NCBI GenBank assembly: GCA_965230975.1
Contig: OZ246402.1
Coordinates: 165,771-229,770 of the forward strand
Length of the DNA stretch: 64,000 bases
Direction of reading: 5' to 3'
Source of the DNA: an uncultured Candidatus Saccharibacteria bacterium
GTDB lineage: Bacteria; Patescibacteriota; Dojkabacteria; J137
Part shown: positions 8,800-53,205 of the stretch, in pieces
Layout of the letters: the number at the start of each line of letters is the position of its first letter
Numbering within the stretch: position 1 is the first letter of the stretch
The notes under the pieces: model-generated
Told to the model about the DNA's origin: nothing
What the model saw: the letters and a program-made list of their open reading frames with translations, nothing else
Databases searched by the model: none
Position numbers and translations under genes: made by a program

Positions 8800-10269
8800 A
8801 TGACTCTTACTAAAGAAAAAGTTTTAGAACTTTTATCAAATATTAAAATTGCTAAAGTAGTTTCGTTTTTTAAAAATGAAAACTCTGACCATCTGTTGGT
8901 GGTTAAAATCCTTACTGAAGAAGGTGAGAAACAGATTGTTACTGGCGCAGACAATTTTAAAGAAGGAGATTTAGTTCCATACCTTGGTGTTGGTTTTGTT
9001 GTTCCAGGTTTTTTATTTAAAGGTGATGAGGTTACTTTAGAAGCTAGAAAACTTAGAGGTTACGATTCTTTTGGTATGATTTTAGCAGAAGATGAAATTG
9101 GTTTAAGTGAAGATCACGAAGGTATTATGGTTGTTCAAGGTTCAGATGAATTGATTGGCAAATCAATAATAGATGTTTTAACTGAAGATCAAATTGCAAA
9201 TGTATTAAAAAATGCTGGAGTTGTAGAACTGACACCAGAGATCAAATCAAAAGTGGATTTAATAACAAGAGAATTACAAGAATTCGTAGGTGTAGAAGAT
9301 ATGCCAGCAATTTTAGCAGAAAGATCTTTAAAGATTTACTGGGGAACTGCACCTACTGGAAAGCCCCACTTAGCATATTTTGTACCAATGATGAAAATAG
9401 CAGACTTATTGCAAGCGGGTTGTGAAGTCACAATTCTTTTTGCAAATATACATGCATTTTTAGATAACATGAAATCAACATGGGAGCTATTAGAATACAG
9501 AACTCAATACTACCAATTAATAATTACAGAGATATTAAAAACAGTTAACGTACCAGTAGATAAACTGAAATTTGTTGTAGGAAGGGATTATCAATTAAAA
9601 GAAGATTACACCTTAGATGTATATAAAGTTGCAGCATTAGCATCTTTAAGGGATGTGCAAAAAGCAGGTGCAGAAGTAGTAAAACAGGTAGAAAGCCCGT
9701 TATTAAGTGGAATGCTTTACCCTATCTTGCAAGCTTTAGATGAAGAATATCTTGAAGCTGATGCTCAGCTTGGAGGTGAAGATCAACGAAAAATATTTAT
9801 GTTTGCAAGAGAATACCTTCCAAAGATAGGTTACAAAAAAAGAATACATTTAATGAACTACTTAATTCCAGGGTTAGGCAAATCAGGCAAAATGTCTTCT
9901 AGTGAGCCTAATTCAAAAATTGATCTAGATGATTCAGATGAGATTATCAAGGATAAAATTCAAAAAGCCTACTCTTTAGATAGGCAAGTAGAAGGAAATG
10001 GTTTATTAGCGGTACTAAGATTTATTATCTTTAGGAAGTTAGAGTCACAAGAAAGAAGCTTAAAGATCTCAAGACCTGAAAAATGGGGAGGCGATGTTGA
10101 ATATGCAAATTACAAAGACTTGGAAAATGATTTTGCTGAAGGTAAGTTATCTTCTGTGGATTTGAAACCAATAGTTGCGCAAGAGATAATAAGCTTAATA
10201 AGCGGTATTAGGGAGACAATAAAAAATAATGCTGATTTACTAAACAAGGCTTACCCAAAAAATAATTAA
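8800..10269 (+). CDS. tyrS: tyrosyl-tRNA synthetase, archaeal/eukaryotic type, with an N-terminal EMAP-II/Myf-like tRNA-binding OB domain
   Basis: The core aligns along its length to archaeal TyrRS. PTGKPHLAY is the HIGH-type motif. ANIHAFLDNMKS, DYTLDVYKVAALASLRDVQKAG, YPILQALDEEYLEADAQLGGEDQRKIFMFAREYLPK, KMSSS and RPEKWGGDVEYANYKDLE each match the M. jannaschii TyrRS counterparts. The first ~160 aa (KIAKVVSFFKNENSDHLLVVKI...GDLVPY...RGYDSFGMILAEDEIGL) have the tRNA-binding (Myf/CsaA/EMAP-II) fold signature. Confidence 0.85.
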   Translation: MTLTKEKVLELLSNIKIAKVVSFFKNENSDHLLVVKILTEEGEKQIVTGADNFKEGDLVPYLGVGFVVPGFLFKGDEVTLEARKLRGYDSFGMILAEDEIGLSEDHEGIMVVQGSDELIGKSIIDVLTEDQIANVLKNAGVVELTPEIKSKVDLITRELQEFVGVEDMPAILAERSLKIYWGTAPTGKPHLAYFVPMMKIADLLQAGCEVTILFANIHAFLDNMKSTWELLEYRTQYYQLIITEILKTVNVPVDKLKFVVGRDYQLKEDYTLDVYKVAALASLRDVQKAGAEVVKQVESPLLSGMLYPILQALDEEYLEADAQLGGEDQRKIFMFAREYLPKIGYKKRIHLMNYLIPGLGKSGKMSSSEPNSKIDLDDSDEIIKDKIQKAYSLDRQVEGNGLLAVLRFIIFRKLESQERSLKISRPEKWGGDVEYANYKDLENDFAEGKLSSVDLKPIVAQEIISLISGIRETIKNNADLLNKAYPKNN

Positions 10270-10274
10270 TTATC

Positions 10275-11408
10275 ATGAACAAAACCACTCTTAAGTTCCT
10301 AACATATATTGGCATAGGTGTTATTCTTTTACACTTTGCAATAACCTTTGCCATTAGAGTGAGTCTTATGGCTATGCCAAACGAATGGCTGGCTGCTTTA
10401 TGGCTAAATATATTTGGAATAAATGATTTATACCAAAACATAAAATTTTATGAAATAAACCCCACCCTTGCACCTTTAAATCAATTTTATTACATCGCAT
10501 CTTTCATACTTAGTGGTATAGCAACCCTAATCGTAGGTAGAGGAAGAAATATTATTGAAATATTGGGAATAATGATCTCATTTGCAATTCCACAAAAAAG
10601 AAAATCTTGGGGTAAAATATACAATCTAGAAACCAATGAGCCATTGCCCTTTGCATCTATAAGAATAATTCAAAACGATGAAAACGGACACTTTGTAAAA
10701 GTATTACAAGAAATAGTATCTGATGTAGAAGGAAACTATAGAATTTCTGCATTACAATCAGAAGTAAATGTAGTAGTCCAGGTAAGATTGTCAAGCTTTA
10801 CGACCCTTGAAGTACCAATCACTCAATTAAAAGAAAGAACATCTTCAAATGACATAATAGAAGATATAAACCTAAGTTCAGATACTTCTGCCAAAGGCTC
10901 TTTTATAAACCAAAGACAAAGACTTATTAAAACAATATATAAAATTGTAATTATATTGCTATATATACTCTCCCTTGTAAGCGTAATTACCATCTCTTTT
11001 TATGCACTTAGGTTCGAACTAACTTTAATAGCATTACAATATAATTTAGCAGTATCGATCATTACTTTAATTTGGAATACTAATGTAATATTTAACCTTG
11101 GAAAACCTGAGCTTGGAATGATTTTGGATAAAGAAACTAAGCTACCAATATCTTATTACACAATTAAAGTTTTTAAAGATAACAAGCAGATCTTTTCTAA
11201 AGTTATAGAAAAAAGTGGAAAAATAATACTCCCATTACCAAGTGGCAATTACAAGGCAGATATCTTTAAAGAAGGATATAAAAGTTTAAATGACATAGAC
11301 TTAAAGATTAATAAAAGCGGGTATACAAAAAACAATATTTATTTAGAAAAAGATAGTAAGGTAATTAGTGAAGCAACAAGTGGAAAACTTGCAAACCCTT
11401 TCTCTTAA
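10275..11408 (+). CDS. membrane protein with two carboxypeptidase-regulatory-like (transthyretin/Ig-like) beta-sandwich domains
   Basis: N-terminal TM helices. Segments WGKIYNLETNEPLPFASIRIIQNDENGHF...EGNYRI and LGMILDKETKLPISYYTIKVF...SGNYKADIFKEGYKS resemble CarbopepD_reg-like domains. By-eye call. Confidence 0.4.
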   Translation: MNKTTLKFLTYIGIGVILLHFAITFAIRVSLMAMPNEWLAALWLNIFGINDLYQNIKFYEINPTLAPLNQFYYIASFILSGIATLIVGRGRNIIEILGIMISFAIPQKRKSWGKIYNLETNEPLPFASIRIIQNDENGHFVKVLQEIVSDVEGNYRISALQSEVNVVVQVRLSSFTTLEVPITQLKERTSSNDIIEDINLSSDTSAKGSFINQRQRLIKTIYKIVIILLYILSLVSVITISFYALRFELTLIALQYNLAVSIITLIWNTNVIFNLGKPELGMILDKETKLPISYYTIKVFKDNKQIFSKVIEKSGKIILPLPSGNYKADIFKEGYKSLNDIDLKINKSGYTKNNIYLEKDSKVISEATSGKLANPFS

Positions 11409-11846
11409 TTACTTTCGAGTATTATCAATAATCTTTTGAAGTACTTTAAAGTAAGTCTCAATCTCACTTTCAGAGCACCCATCTAAAATCTTAATAAGCT
11501 TTTTATTAATTTTGGTTCTCATCTTTTTTGCCAACCTTAACCCATCTATAGTTAAACATGCTTCTTTAACACGCTTATCCTCCTCTAATCTTGTAACTTC
11601 TATTAACCTCTTTTCAATAAGTTCGTTTGTTAACTCTGTAATAAAAGGTGCATCTACACCTAAAATCAATGCCATCTCGTTAAAGTTAAAAACCTTTCTA
11701 TCTACAAGTAAATCAAGAAGTGTCCAAGACGAGATTGAAATTTCATATTCTGCAACTAGACTACTTACATAATCTTTTAAAAGCCTATGCGCAATTGTTT
11801 GAATAACTGCGTAGTTTTGCAACTTAAAATCATTTACTATTTGCAT
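11409..11846 (-). CDS. MarR-family winged-helix transcriptional regulator
   Basis: 145 aa. Central wHTH (MALILGVDAPFITELTNELIEKRLIEVTRLEEDKRV) with a MarR-like layout. Directly abuts the convergent upstream gene (stops at 11408 and 11409). Confidence 0.6.
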   Translation of the reverse strand: MQIVNDFKLQNYAVIQTIAHRLLKDYVSSLVAEYEISISSWTLLDLLVDRKVFNFNEMALILGVDAPFITELTNELIEKRLIEVTRLEEDKRVKEACLTIDGLRLAKKMRTKINKKLIKILDGCSESEIETYFKVLQKIIDNTRK

Positions 11847-12048
11847 ATGTTGGTAATAAGATTCAATAATCTTCCCATATAAGCTAATAAATATCCAATT
11901 TGTTATTTAGCTAAAGCTTTTTGGTTGATGCCAATAGGGTTTGCCTGTAAAAGCATTAACGATATTGCTTTAAGACACAATAGTTATAATGCTTAAGTAG
12001 CTAAACTAATTAAAGAATAGTGTAAAATATAATGTTTAAAACAATTAT

Positions 12049-12777
12049 ATGCATATAATATTAGTTTCCTTTTTAGCTGGTATCTTGACAGTATTAACAC
12101 CCTGCTCTTTTACTTTGTTACCTGTAATATTGAGTACAGGCTTAGAAAATACAAAAAGTAAAAAGAGACCGTATTTAATTATTTTATCATTAGCATTATC
12201 TGTAATTTTATTTACATTATTATTAAAAGCCACAACCGCATTAATTGATATTCCTTTACAAACATGGAATATTCTATCGGGCATTTTAATTATTTTTGTT
12301 GCACTCTCTTTTTTATACCCCGATTTGTTTAGTAGAATTTTAAAGAAAAACCCAATAACCTTAAAAAGTGAGTCGGTATTTAAAAATAGTTTTGAATCGC
12401 AAAGCACTATTACATCAATACTTGCAGGAATTTCTTTAGGACCAATTTTTACTGGCTGCAGTCCAACATATTTATTAATAGTTTCTGTATTATTACCCAC
12501 AGATTTTTTTAGTGGATTAATTTACTTGCTTGCATATGTTTTTGGACTATCGACAATTCTTATTCTGGTATTATTTGGAGGAAGATCTATTGTTAATAAA
12601 TTCAAATGGGCAATTAATCCTCAAGGCAAATTTAAAAAGCTGTTGGCAATTGTAATGATTATCTTTGGAATATTAATCATTTCTGGCCTTTACAAGCAAA
12701 TAGAATCTTCTTTGTTAAGTGCCGATTTTTCTAGGAATATTATTAATTTTGAGAGAGGTTTTTTGCAAAACAATTAG
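12049..12777 (+). CDS. CcdA/DsbD-family cytochrome c biogenesis / thiol-disulfide transporter-like membrane protein
   Basis: LAGILTVLTPCSFTLLPVIL matches the DsbD/CcdA TM1 cysteine motif. About 6 TM helices, and a second Cys in GCSPTYLL. Confidence 0.55.
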   Translation: MHIILVSFLAGILTVLTPCSFTLLPVILSTGLENTKSKKRPYLIILSLALSVILFTLLLKATTALIDIPLQTWNILSGILIIFVALSFLYPDLFSRILKKNPITLKSESVFKNSFESQSTITSILAGISLGPIFTGCSPTYLLIVSVLLPTDFFSGLIYLLAYVFGLSTILILVLFGGRSIVNKFKWAINPQGKFKKLLAIVMIIFGILIISGLYKQIESSLLSADFSRNIINFERGFLQNN

Positions 12778-49569: not shown

Positions 49570-49657
49570 ATTTGTTTTCTTTAATAATAATATTGTACCA
49601 CTCTTAATTTATACCTTAGCCAATCAGAATTGTAACTATTTAGGGTATAATTCAAGT

Positions 49658-50848
49658 ATGAAAATTTTAAAAATCGAAGAGATTCAAAACTTTGATGAAA
49701 TTATTAAAACTTTGAAAAATGGAGGTCTTGTAATCTACCCGACCGAAACATCTTACGGTGTTGGTGTAGATGCAACAAATGAAGATGCAGTTTCAAAACT
49801 TTTAAAATATAAACAACGCCCAGAAGGGAAAGCTATTTCTATTGCGGTAAGTAATCAAGACTCGGCAAAAAAGTATGTTAAATTAAACTCGCAGGCAGAA
49901 GGTCTTTACAATACTTTTTTGCCGGGGCCAGTTACAATTATTTCTAAGTCTTTAGAAAAAGTAGATAAACGTTTAGAAAGTGAAAAAGAAACTTTGGGGG
50001 TTAGGATTCCAAATCATAGATTCTTACTAGATTTGCTAAGTGCTTTTGGAAAGCCGATTACGGCAACATCTGCAAATTTAAGTGGTAAAAAGACACCCTA
50101 CTCTGTTTCAGATATTTTAGATAATTTGCCAGAGAAGCAAAAAGATTTAATAGATTTGATTATTGATGGTGGCGAGTTGCCTAAAAACCCACCTTCAACA
50201 GTAATAGATACTACTACTTCAGAACTTACAACTTATAGGCAAGGTAGAATTGATCCAACAAAGGTTGCATCTAGTGACTCTCTTGAGACTAGTTCAGTTG
50301 AAGAAACTATTTTGGCAGGTGAAAAATTCTTTTTTGACCATAAAAAAGCTTTAAAAACAGGTCCATTAGTAATTTTATTAAATGGAGAGCTAGGTGCTGG
50401 CAAGACCCATTTTACAAAAGGAATTGCCAAGGCTTTAGGTATTAAAAATGTTATAAAATCGCCTACATATAACTATGTTAACGAGTATATTTTTACATCT
50501 AAATCTTTGCAAAGCTCTTCTATTGAAGATTTAAATAACGAAGCTGTGAGTATTAACAATTCAAATTACAGAGTTAGAGATAAGGATTTGGATCATTTAA
50601 AAACTACTTATTTTGAAAAACATAAGTTGTACCACTTTGACGCTTGGCGGGTTCAATCTAAAGAGGATTTAAATTTACTAAGGTTTTACGATTGGTTTGA
50701 ATCGGGCAATGTAATTATTATTGAATGGCCAAGTGTAGTAATGAATTTGGACCAGGATTTTTTTGAAAAGATAAACTACTACTATTTAGAGTTTGTTCAG
50801 TTAGATAACGATTCTAGAGAAATTAAAATATTTGAAATTAATAATTAA
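49658..50848 (+). CDS. fusion of L-threonylcarbamoyladenylate synthase (TsaC/YrdC domain) and the t6A P-loop ATPase TsaE (YjeE)
   Basis: N-terminal LKNGGLVIYPTETSYGVGVDATNEDAVSKLLKYKQRPEGKAISIAV is the YrdC/Sua5 signature (about aa 1-197). C-terminal GPLVILLNGELGAGKTHFTKGIAKALGIKNVIKSPTYNYVNEY is a near-consensus match to TsaE (E. coli [37 protein letters not shown]), about aa 215-396. Confidence 0.75.
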   Translation: MKILKIEEIQNFDEIIKTLKNGGLVIYPTETSYGVGVDATNEDAVSKLLKYKQRPEGKAISIAVSNQDSAKKYVKLNSQAEGLYNTFLPGPVTIISKSLEKVDKRLESEKETLGVRIPNHRFLLDLLSAFGKPITATSANLSGKKTPYSVSDILDNLPEKQKDLIDLIIDGGELPKNPPSTVIDTTTSELTTYRQGRIDPTKVASSDSLETSSVEETILAGEKFFFDHKKALKTGPLVILLNGELGAGKTHFTKGIAKALGIKNVIKSPTYNYVNEYIFTSKSLQSSSIEDLNNEAVSINNSNYRVRDKDLDHLKTTYFEKHKLYHFDAWRVQSKEDLNLLRFYDWFESGNVIIIEWPSVVMNLDQDFFEKINYYYLEFVQLDNDSREIKIFEINN

Positions 50849-50856
50849 ACCATCCT

Positions 50857-51552
50857 ATGCCCCTACAATCTTTTGATGACCTGATTCAAGAAGACTATCT
50901 TAACGAAGTACTTGCCCCAGCAGAAGCTTATTCTGTAGAGCACCTTGTGCAAAGTAAAGTGAATGCTCAGATTGAGCAGGGAAAGGTATTGGGGTTTGAT
51001 GAATTTAAATTAAAGTGTGTGGGTTCCGGAGTGTACCCTGAAAACAAGTATTTCTATAAAGATTCAAAAGGTCAAAAGAAATTAAGCCATTTAGGCAAGT
51101 TTTACCAGAATCTTTCAGCTTACACGCAATCTTACACCGAAGATTCATTAAACAAACTTTTATTATCTGCGTCAGATGTTTATGTGGATAGGATTTATGC
51201 TGATAGAGCTTATGCTCAAACTGCATTTTTAGAAGACGAAATTAAAAGGATAGTTAATTTCTTAGCTGGAGCATTAGGACTTGGTGTAAAAGATATTCGA
51301 GATCTACTTTCTGAACTTGGAAGAATTAAACTTAAGTTTGAAAACTACTCCATTGTTCAAAAAAGAGCTGAATATGAAAGATTGGAAAAAATCTTAAGGG
51401 AATCAACTTCACCACAAGAGATCTCTTTGGCAAAAGCAGATATAGTAACTTTAAAAGGTCTTAGCCTACAAAAAGATAATAACGAGCTACTATTAATGCT
51501 AGTAGGTATTTGCTTGCCAGCGCTATTTGAAGGATTTACGGATGATTTGTAA
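50857..51552 (+). CDS. hypothetical protein
   Basis: 231-aa ORF 9 nt after the TsaC-TsaE gene. No recognised motif. Confidence 0.4.
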   Translation: MPLQSFDDLIQEDYLNEVLAPAEAYSVEHLVQSKVNAQIEQGKVLGFDEFKLKCVGSGVYPENKYFYKDSKGQKKLSHLGKFYQNLSAYTQSYTEDSLNKLLLSASDVYVDRIYADRAYAQTAFLEDEIKRIVNFLAGALGLGVKDIRDLLSELGRIKLKFENYSIVQKRAEYERLEKILRESTSPQEISLAKADIVTLKGLSLQKDNNELLLMLVGICLPALFEGFTDDL

Positions 51553-51732: not shown

Positions 51733-53205
51733 GTGTCAAAACTCCAACTTGTAACAAACAACTTAGCCTACTCTTTTGACGATAGGGTCTTATTTGAAAA
51801 CTTATCTTTATCTGTATCTACAGAAGATAGAATTGCATTAATTGGCCAAAACGGAAGTGGAAAGTCAACTTTACTAAAGATTTTAGCGGGCGAAATAGCC
51901 CCGAGCGCGGGGTTAGTAATCCAAGATTGTCACATTGGCTATTTCGCCCAAAGCTACCCATCAATTAGAAACCTGGAAATTACAATCGCAGAATATTTAA
52001 TGCAACAAGATATTCCGCTTGAACAAATTTATACATCTTATATGCGAATTTGGCTTAAGCCAATTGATTTATCTAAAAAAATTATTGATTTAAGCGGTGG
52101 TGAGTTTACTAAATTTATGTTTGCAATAATTGATCAAACAAAACCAGAAGTGTTAATTTTAGATGAACCAACTAATAATATAGATGCCTACTCTATTGAA
52201 AGATTAAAAGAGTATATTAAATATTTTCAAGGTGGAGTTGTATTTGTATCCCACAATCTTGAATTTATATCTTCTGTTCCAAATCAAATATGGGAACTTG
52301 AAAACCTGGCAGTGAATAAAACGATATCTACCTATCTTGAATTTCAAGAGATTAAAAAATTGGAAGAGAATGCTAGACTTGGAAAACTTTCATCTACAAA
52401 TAAAGAACTAAAAAAACTAAAAAGTGCATACCAATTTGAAAAACTTAGAATTAATAAAGATCAGAAAAAAAAGGCAAAACTGCAAAAGAAAGGTACTTCC
52501 GGAGTTCCTAAAATAATGGCGGGAATAAAAAAGAATGAAGCTCAAATTTCATCTGGGAAAAAGCTAAACAACCTGTCTGTTCAAATATCCAATCTGCAAA
52601 AAGAAAAATCGTCTTTGCAAAAAAGTGTTCTCAAGAAAGCTTATTTAGAATTTGAAACTGAAAATAAAAAGCCGGGTTTAATTTTAAATCTTCAGCAAAC
52701 AATTCTTTCTAACAATTTAGACTTTTCAATTTATTTCGGAGATAGGATTTCTATAAATGGTCAAAATAGCTCAGGCAAAACCACACTGTGTAAATATATT
52801 TTTAATCAAACTAAAGATAAATTTAAAGTCGCATATTTAGATCAAAAATACGAGATAGTGGATTTAAATAAAAGTGTTTTAGAGAATATGAACACTTTTA
52901 ATAAAACATTGGGGCAAGAAACGAATAGAAGGTTTTTAGGTAACTTCTTATTTAGTACAAAAGGTCAGGTAAATCAAAAGGCCTCTACGCTTTCTGGGGG
53001 TGAACTTGCAAGATTAGCATTTGCCATGGTTACAGCAGGTGAAGTAGATTTATTAATTTTAGATGAGCCGGTTAACAACATTGACATTCAAACTCAAGAA
53101 GTTATAATCCACGGAATAAATAGGTTTAATGGTGCACTTGTTGTAGTGGCGCACGACAATCTATTTAAGGATAAGTTAAAACTCAAAAAATTTATATCAC
53201 TTTAG
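51733..53205 (+). CDS. ABC-F-type ATPase with two tandem nucleotide-binding domains and no transmembrane domain
   Basis: NBD1: GQNGSGKSTLLKILAG (Walker A), LSGGEFTKFM (signature), LILDEPTNNID (Walker B). NBD2: GQNSSGKTTLCKYI, LSGGELARLAFAM, LILDEPVNNID. K-rich linker between them. Confidence 0.8.
   Translation: MSKLQLVTNNLAYSFDDRVLFENLSLSVSTEDRIALIGQNGSGKSTLLKILAGEIAPSAGLVIQDCHIGYFAQSYPSIRNLEITIAEYLMQQDIPLEQIYTSYMRIWLKPIDLSKKIIDLSGGEFTKFMFAIIDQTKPEVLILDEPTNNIDAYSIERLKEYIKYFQGGVVFVSHNLEFISSVPNQIWELENLAVNKTISTYLEFQEIKKLEENARLGKLSSTNKELKKLKSAYQFEKLRINKDQKKKAKLQKKGTSGVPKIMAGIKKNEAQISSGKKLNNLSVQISNLQKEKSSLQKSVLKKAYLEFETENKKPGLILNLQQTILSNNLDFSIYFGDRISINGQNSSGKTTLCKYIFNQTKDKFKVAYLDQKYEIVDLNKSVLENMNTFNKTLGQETNRRFLGNFLFSTKGQVNQKASTLSGGELARLAFAMVTAGEVDLLILDEPVNNIDIQTQEVIIHGINRFNGALVVVAHDNLFKDKLKLKKFISL

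Follow-up and report, generated by a model that had tools for sequence, protein, structure and literature searches.

A conserved TsaC–TsaE fusion protein as a candidate bifunctional enzyme of t6A synthesis in candidate phyla radiation bacteria

Can the enzyme that makes the activated intermediate for the N6-threonylcarbamoyladenosine (t6A) modification of tRNA and the ATPase that resets the transferase using it work as one polypeptide? The question is raised by a locus in a 64-kb stretch of contig OZ246402.1 (64,000 nucleotides, analyzed in full and called the window below), which comes from an uncultured bacterium deposited as Candidatus Saccharibacteria and placed by GTDB in Dojkabacteria. 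There, a single open reading frame (ORF) joins TsaC (YrdC), the threonylcarbamoyl-AMP (TC-AMP) synthase, to TsaE (YjeE), a P-loop ATPase. Our findings indicate that this architecture recurs widely among bacteria of the candidate phyla radiation (CPR), commonly next to tsaD. With a probability of roughly 70%, we interpret the product as a bifunctional enzyme of t6A synthesis whose TsaE half would tether TC-AMP synthesis to the TsaD platform, a mechanism that we infer from solved complexes of the separate proteins.

The ORF list and the DNA agree on one frame of 396 codons, as the original prediction had stated, opened by ATG and closed by TAA with no internal stop or frame break. Its nearest relative in the homologue search (P0001) is 97% identical and of equal length. 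Profile searches also upheld the earlier assignment of an N-terminal YrdC/Sua5-type domain and a C-terminal TsaE ATPase. In Pfam, the N-terminal half matches Sua5_yciO_yrdC (PF01300) at aa 18-196 (E=8e-50, 169 bits against a cut-off of 25.1), and the C-terminal half matches TsaE (PF02367) in two stretches (E=6.7e-25, 87.9 bits against 26.6). NCBIfam assigns the halves to TIGR00057, the TC-AMP synthase model (aa 11-199, 176 bits against 123.2), and TIGR00150, the TsaE model (78.3 bits against 60.1), while the E. coli-type subfamily model PRK10646 is missed by the TsaE half (60.7 bits against 246). All other P-loop families in the Pfam scan of the protein gave E-values of at least 0.0025 and fell below their cut-offs, leaving TsaE as the only one to pass a curated threshold. 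The SUA5-domain family was absent at E<=1, its place at the C-terminus being taken by TsaE. Sequence searches of the PDB gave the same division: the N-terminal half retrieved YrdC, Sua5 and TsaC2, and the C-terminal half retrieved HI0065, YdiB and TmTsaE, with E-values down to 3.5e-14 in phmmer against PDB TsaE chains.

An AlphaFold2 model of the window protein, built with 120 homologues as input, has a mean predicted local distance difference test (pLDDT) score of 90.3 and a predicted template modelling (pTM) score of 0.80, and Foldseek matches its halves to solved YrdC/Sua5 and solved TsaE structures, respectively. The TsaC half, with pLDDT 88-98 over aa 1-196, is predicted to adopt the twisted alpha/beta sheet of YrdC; its matches include E. 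coli YrdC (1hru, TMt 0.80-0.82), 1k7j (TMt 0.83) and Sua5/TsaC2 structures. The TsaE half matches 1htw, 1fl9, 5np9, 6s84_B and 6n9a_E at TMt 0.70-0.77.

Conservation was called on alignments of 23 and of 120 fused sequences, and the motifs of both domains are retained (Table 1). The KxR and SxN residues of the TsaC half are presumably the counterparts of K50, R52, S139 and N141 of E. coli. Nine longer members of the fused family, of 409-486 aa (P0378, P0379, P0380, P0387, P0400, P0405, P0413, P0430 and P0483), align query residue ~100 some 30-70 residues further on, pointing to an additional insertion or an N-terminal extension in their TsaC half.

In the TsaE half, the Walker A, Switch I, Switch II and Glu-Trp motifs all persist, and R331 of Switch II is among the invariant or near-invariant positions. 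The original prediction described the Walker region as matching E. coli YjeE almost residue for residue; the match is real, yet this wording overstates it, as the quoted stretch is identical to the H. influenzae TsaE HI0065 (PDB 1htw/1fl9) at ~20 of 37 positions (~54%), a likeness at the level of motifs that includes every motif residue. The sole systematic change lies in Switch II, which reads HxDxYR elsewhere in bacteria and carries Trp in place of Tyr (W330) across the whole fused family. Switch I of the fusion corresponds to S61/T63/F64 of T. maritima TsaE, for which mutagenesis demonstrated that S61 and T63/F64 are required for multi-turnover synthesis (PMC6614819). D80, Y82 and R83 of the same protein are functional residues, E108 is required for ATP hydrolysis and W109 touches the gamma-phosphate (PMC6009658; PMC6614819). 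More broadly, mutation of T42, S61, T63/F64, D80, Y82/R83 or E108 in the T. maritima protein abolishes either ATP hydrolysis or multi-turnover t6A synthesis (PMC6614819; PMC6009658). Judged from the sequence, with both domains intact and all catalytic and switch residues present, both halves of the fusion look catalytically competent.

The TsaE domain nevertheless departs from a stand-alone TsaE of ~150-160 aa, being fused to TsaC and carrying, in the clade of the window protein, a 40-aa loop (aa 283-322). This insertion is missing from HI0065, where its site falls exactly between residues 79 and 80, and it is the reason why the Pfam TsaE match is split in two. It is common to the window protein, P0001 and P0002 only and is absent in P0003-P0008; other family members have insertions of 10-45 residues at this hairpin site that are unrelated to it. 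The loop is also the sole low-confidence segment of the model, with pLDDT below 50 at aa 294-307 and 313-317. The hairpin joins the strand that starts at Switch I to the strand that ends at Switch II, and by P-loop strand order the loop should lie on the TsaE face that points away from where ATP and TsaD bind; there, it should leave docking undisturbed.

The fusion is not a peculiarity of one genome. Both Pfam domains occur together in more than 120 clusters (90% identity) of proteins of 350-405 aa that are 44-97% identical to the window protein and come from NCBI, ENA, JGI and Logan assemblies. In a 50%-identity library, full-length proteins whose best match crosses the junction make up ~115-120 of the 150 best representatives, and a scan of GTDB species genomes returned 46 loci with the fused gene. 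The most divergent fused proteins are ~33% identical to the window protein. One apparently unfused tsaC followed by tsaD (L049) proved on inspection to be a fused gene broken by a masked run of N. Proteins of this family have already been deposited many times, named only “L-threonylcarbamoyladenylate synthase”.

By record title, the fusion occurs in Ca. Dojkabacteria (WS6), Shapirobacteria, Beckwithbacteria, Woesebacteria, Roizmanbacteria, “Microgenomates” and Kerfeldbacteria, many titles of metagenome-assembled genomes (MAGs) being automatic labels that look unreliable, such as “uncultured Gammaproteobacteria”. Of the named relatives, those in Dojkabacteria come closest to the window protein, at 56-60% identity. 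In a rough neighbour-joining tree without support values, the window protein groups with those of L089, L003, L001 and L004-L008 in one clade, sister to a WS6 clade. Planctomycetota also carry the fusion, among them Ca. Uabimicrobium amorphum, with a complete genome of 9.5 Mb (NZ_AP019860.1; L040, fusion at 9998..11074), and a second Uabimicrobium. These planctomycete proteins (L040; also L048 and L042) are 37-40% identical to the window protein over their full length, reside in 9-Mb genomes and are encoded without an adjacent tsaD. In the same rough tree they are nested within CPR sequences, which suggests that an already fused gene may have reached planctomycetes by horizontal transfer. Within a large CPR lineage, the fusion is of ancient origin and under selection.

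A separate observation concerns MAGs titled Aenigmatarchaeota, Micrarchaeota or “archaeon” (L013, L018, L020 and L026; fusion at ~10001..11060 or equivalent), which encode a bacterial-type fusion with a bacterial-type tsaD just downstream. In L013, the neighbours, read by eye, are an Lhr-type helicase, an NFACT-like protein, ScpB and a LAGLIDADG-like ORF. Either CPR DNA placed in the wrong bin or a transfer of the operon to DPANN archaea could account for these records.

The genomic context of the fusion places it with the transferase of the pathway. Using a TsaD hidden Markov model (HMM) built from the loci, we found the fusion followed directly by tsaD, in the same orientation, at 36 of the 46 loci, and in ~20 of these the two frames overlap or abut. 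In L022, for instance, the fusion spans 9950..11038 and tsaD 11031..12107; the latter matches PF00814 at E=3e-74 and retains the HMEGH metal site, indicating a bona fide TsaD. Three more long contigs, two of them of 1.12 and 1.21 Mb, share the order HU, fusion, tsaD, fpg and serS, with overlaps of 4-8 nt. In most related lineages, therefore, tsaD is the next gene after the fusion, often overlapping it. The TsaDs encoded beside the fusion in CPR genomes (L022, 11031..12107; L009, 11044..12141) carry the variant motifs DTSCDD, SGKHTE (for SGGHT) and GGGVFNS (for GGVAAN) and keep the HMEGH ligands. Motif regular expressions for TsaD and TsaB overlooked most CPR TsaDs on account of these variants, and phmmer and the HMM were used instead.

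The window itself follows a different arrangement. The original prediction reported neither tsaD nor tsaB in it, and our searches concur, the TsaD HMM returning nothing and E. coli TsaB only a spurious match (E=4.1). In the window clade, no tsaD lies within 10 kb of the fusion, which is followed either by an ABC-F gene (L001, L002 and L089) or by a 231-aa ORF and then the ABC-F gene (window and L090). Since the sister clades have the operon, we take the separation from tsaD in the window clade to be the derived state.

What such a protein might do is best considered against the mechanism established for the separate proteins. In T. maritima complexes, TsaE with ATP bound lies where the active site of TsaD opens, touches both TsaB and TsaD and shuts out tRNA, and its ATP hydrolysis is required only for multiple turnovers (PMC6009658; PMC6614819). 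Missoury et al. suggested that TsaE “prepares” TsaD to meet TsaC transiently, and proposed that TsaBDE is loaded with TC-AMP first and that ATP hydrolysis frees TsaE afterwards (PMC6009658). Luthra et al. left open what TsaC does in the reset step and at which point it acts (PMC6614819), and both the transfer of TC-AMP from TsaC to TsaD and the relation of the TsaE ATP cycle to TsaC are open questions of the pathway (PMC6009658, PMC6614819). A conserved TsaC–TsaE polypeptide encoded beside tsaD is what the model of Missoury et al. would predict.

By analogy with these complexes, the N-terminal domain of the fusion would convert threonine, bicarbonate and ATP to TC-AMP, and the C-terminal domain would be a competent TsaE ATPase. 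TsaE would then serve as a docking module, each binding event bringing TsaC to the transferase once per cycle, so that the labile TC-AMP could be loaded during the TsaE-bound “reset” state. ATP hydrolysis would subsequently free the TsaC–TsaE protein and let tRNA bind, and the fusion would fix the TsaC:TsaE stoichiometry at 1:1. The original prediction had likewise proposed that TC-AMP synthesis is physically coupled to the reset ATPase, and we infer such coupling on the same analogy.

How the two domains are connected bears on this proposal. In the model of the window protein, the junction is very short (aa ~197-202) and confidently predicted (pLDDT 86-94), and the first TsaE strand (aa 203-211) follows directly on TsaC. 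Inspection of the junction for an assembly or frameshift artefact revealed none, and the one-ORF architecture recurs in independent clusters and genomes. The linkers of relatives are up to ~13 residues longer, and a Roizmanbacteria member (P0116) has a ~20-residue linker that is predicted to be disordered. A rigid two-domain body, which the pTM of 0.80 for the window protein had prompted us to consider as a family feature, is unsupported by the P0116 model, and a flexible tether fits the predicted linkers better than a fixed channel.

Several observations limit the proposed mechanism. In TobZ, the TsaC-like module sits opposite the TsaE-binding side of the TsaD-like module (Missoury et al., PMC6009658), and a short linker therefore may not put TsaC at a TobZ-like channel. 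Predicted domain geometry also varies within the family, from an ordered junction of ~6 residues in the window protein (pTM 0.80) to the disordered linker of P0116 (pTM 0.64). Two homologue searches seeded with the TsaDs of relatives yielded no TsaD that could be traced to the window clade. Finally, no TsaB-sized PF00814 paralogue was detected in the window or in 1.39 Mb of sequence around tsaC(E) and tsaD from ~85 genomes, an absence that says little because only ~1-2 tsaB copies would be expected in such a sample if placed randomly in ~1-Mb genomes. A 311-aa acetyltransferase in L088, considered as a possible TsaB–RimI fusion, proved negative on checking.

The alternative that survives best is neutral gene economy, in which neighbouring pathway genes merged in a streamlined genome and the gain was co-expression only, with no hand-over of the intermediate; we regard this as possible and clearly less probable than the tethering proposal. 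CPR genes are densely packed and often overlap, as the 4-8 nt shared by fusion and tsaD illustrate, and the variable linker length, the disorder predicted in P0116 and the distance from tsaD tolerated in the window clade would all be consistent with it. The persistence of the fusion is harder to reconcile with this account, since it is kept in relatives only ~33-45% identical and in ~115-120 clusters at 50% identity, with no split version among the close relatives that were fetched. It also persists in the 9-Mb Ca. Uabimicrobium genomes, including the complete one of 9.5 Mb, where streamlining cannot explain it. An intermediate stage with tsaC and tsaE as neighbours was likewise unseen, the unfused CPR and DPANN loci that were fetched having no standalone tsaE beside tsaC, and the whole 1.39 Mb of fetched loci contained no standalone TsaE.

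A second alternative is a reduced, TsaB-independent machine of two genes, comprising TsaC–TsaE and TsaD, in which TsaD would form a self-dimer like mitochondrial Qri7 and TsaE would dock on TsaD alone. The missing TsaB-sized paralogue, a conserved operon consisting of the fusion and tsaD only, and the fact that Qri7 needs no partners (PMC6009658) are in line with such a machine. The absence of TsaB is, however, not significant at the expected copy number, and TsaE touches both TsaB and TsaD in the solved complexes (PMC6009658), making this a very improbable explanation of the fusion. Only slightly less doubtful is the related conjecture that Dojkabacteria/Microgenomates-type CPR bacteria, and possibly the DPANN-labelled genomes, make t6A from the fusion and TsaD without TsaB, the fusion docking on a TsaD homodimer and injecting TC-AMP directly; if true, this would constitute a third t6A architecture alongside the TsaBCDE of bacteria and the mitochondrial system that relies on Qri7 alone.

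An assembly or frameshift artefact, or a C-terminal half belonging to an unrelated P-loop NTPase, can be set aside with near certainty: the split Pfam match, the single oddity in its favour, is explained by the inserted loop, the same architecture appears in many independent NCBI, ENA, JGI and Logan assemblies, TsaE models pass curated cut-offs that other P-loop families fail, and the fold matches solved TsaE.

Returning to the TsaC–TsaE protein as a tethered bifunctional enzyme, its closest points of reference are the separate TsaC (YrdC) and TsaE (YjeE) of E. coli, B. subtilis and T. maritima, with which it shares the domain families, the motifs (KxR and SxN; Walker A, SPT(F/Y), HxDx(Y/W)R and EW) and the link to tsaD. 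It differs from them in being one polypeptide with a very short linker, in the Switch II Trp for Tyr and, in the window clade, in the 40-aa hairpin insertion. In model systems, a stable TsaC–TsaBDE complex has never been isolated (PMC6009658; SyntTax survey), and a direct interaction of YrdC with the complex is unreported according to the SyntTax survey. Sua5/TsaC2 likewise combine an N-terminal YrdC-type domain with a second alpha/beta domain, and their structures are the top Foldseek matches; the second domain of the fusion, in contrast, is a TsaE P-loop ATPase instead of SUA5, and the TM-score gained over YrdC-only matches is negligible.

Other proteins join partners of the same or related pathways. 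TobZ and HypF, which combine YrdC-like and Kae1/TsaD-like modules with an internal channel, similarly hold an unstable carbamoyl-adenylate near the transferase, but there the synthase is joined to the transferase itself, whereas here it is joined to a regulatory ATPase that binds the other face of TsaD. The pandoravirus protein TsaN (TsaD-TsaC-SUA5-TcdA) is also a natural multi-domain t6A fusion with TsaC (PMC10484737); unlike the present protein, it comes without TsaE or TsaB, has no channel and acts on nucleotides instead of tRNA (PMC10484737). Archaeal Kae1-Bud32, bacterial TsaB-RimI-TsaD and Alr-TsaE provide precedent for fused t6A partners, none of which joins the first-step TsaC to the second-step accessory ATPase, and a TsaC-HemK fusion in Mycoplasma is another described fusion in the pathway. 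We found no mention of a TsaC–TsaE fusion in open-access PMC and bioRxiv full texts or in the main reviews. The fusion is an undescribed variant within the known t6A pathway, and not a new kind of system.

The remaining features of the locus are collected in Table 1. The window has a G+C content of 32%, and its whole 64 kb contained no tRNA genes (ARAGORN) and no Rfam families at gathering score. Upstream of the fusion, on the other strand, lie rpoB and rpoC; downstream follow genes for the ABC-F protein, a pilin, a histidine phosphatase and a class I tRNA synthetase of the Trp/Tyr type (PF00579). The ABC-F gene is the conserved downstream neighbour in the window clade, at the position where other clades have tsaD. 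The 231-aa ORF between the fusion and the ABC-F gene was considered as a divergent TsaB or other conserved partner and rejected, having no Pfam match, showing no similarity to the ORF downstream of the fusion in L003 and being missing from L089 and L001; the near-identical contig L090 shares it, and it appears to be a lineage-specific insertion. Immediately before the fusion lies a perfect TATAAT hexamer, which a consensus promoter scan omitted for lack of a matching -35 hexamer. The hexamer, together with the lack of a Shine-Dalgarno-like sequence, suggests a leaderless or near-leaderless transcript.

Table 1. Coordinates in the window of the tsaC–tsaE fusion, its domains and motifs, and adjacent features.
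Feature	Positions	Strand	Basis or remark
tsaC–tsaE fusion ORF, complete	49658..50848	+	396 aa and stop; ORF list, DNA, Pfam and NCBIfam above cut-offs
TsaC (YrdC-type threonylcarbamoyl-AMP synthase) domain, aa 1-196	49658..50245	+	PF01300, TIGR00057, Foldseek, pLDDT
KxR motif of TsaC, K52-Q-R54	49811..49819	+	K52 invariant, R54 at least 90% conserved in 120 fused sequences
SxN motif of TsaC, S138-A139-N140	50069..50077	+	each residue at least 90% conserved in 120 fused sequences
Very short inter-domain junction, aa ~197-202	50246..50263	+	AlphaFold2 model
TsaE P-loop ATPase domain, aa 203-396	50264..50845	+	PF02367, TIGR00150, Foldseek, phmmer
Walker A, G243-ELGAGK-T250	50384..50407	+	G246, G248, K249 and T250 invariant in 120 sequences; aligns to GDLGAGKT of HI0065
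Switch I, S268-P-T-Y271	50459..50470	+	S268 and P269 invariant, T270 at least 90% conserved in 120 sequences
Ser/Asn-rich clade-specific insertion of 40 aa, aa 283-322	50504..50623	+	hairpin between TsaE strands 2 and 3
Switch II, H326-F-D328-A-W330-R331	50633..50650	+	H326, D328 and W330 invariant in 120 sequences; aligns to HFDLYR of HI0065
E356-W357 (E108-W109 of E. coli and T. maritima TsaE)	50723..50728	+	both invariant in 120 sequences
Perfect TATAAT hexamer ending 6 nt before the fusion ATG (GGGTATAATTCAAGTATG)	49640..49657	+	no Shine-Dalgarno-like sequence
231-aa ORF without Pfam match	50857..51552	+	starts 9 nt past the fusion stop
ABC-F-type protein, 490 aa, two ABC_tran domains	51733..53205	+	equivalents in L001, L002, L089 and L090

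The t6A modification is among the few universal tRNA modifications, and the bacterial pathway is an antibacterial target. Because proteins of this family are annotated as TC-AMP synthase only, genome surveys would mistakenly count TsaE as missing from these CPR genomes. A conserved TsaC–TsaE fusion beside tsaD argues, by “Rosetta-stone” reasoning, for TsaC and TsaE acting at a shared step on TsaD, and gives comparative support to a published mechanistic hypothesis. The fusion may also offer a ready-made, stable construct with which the elusive complex between TsaC and the transferase could be trapped for cryo-EM or crystallography.

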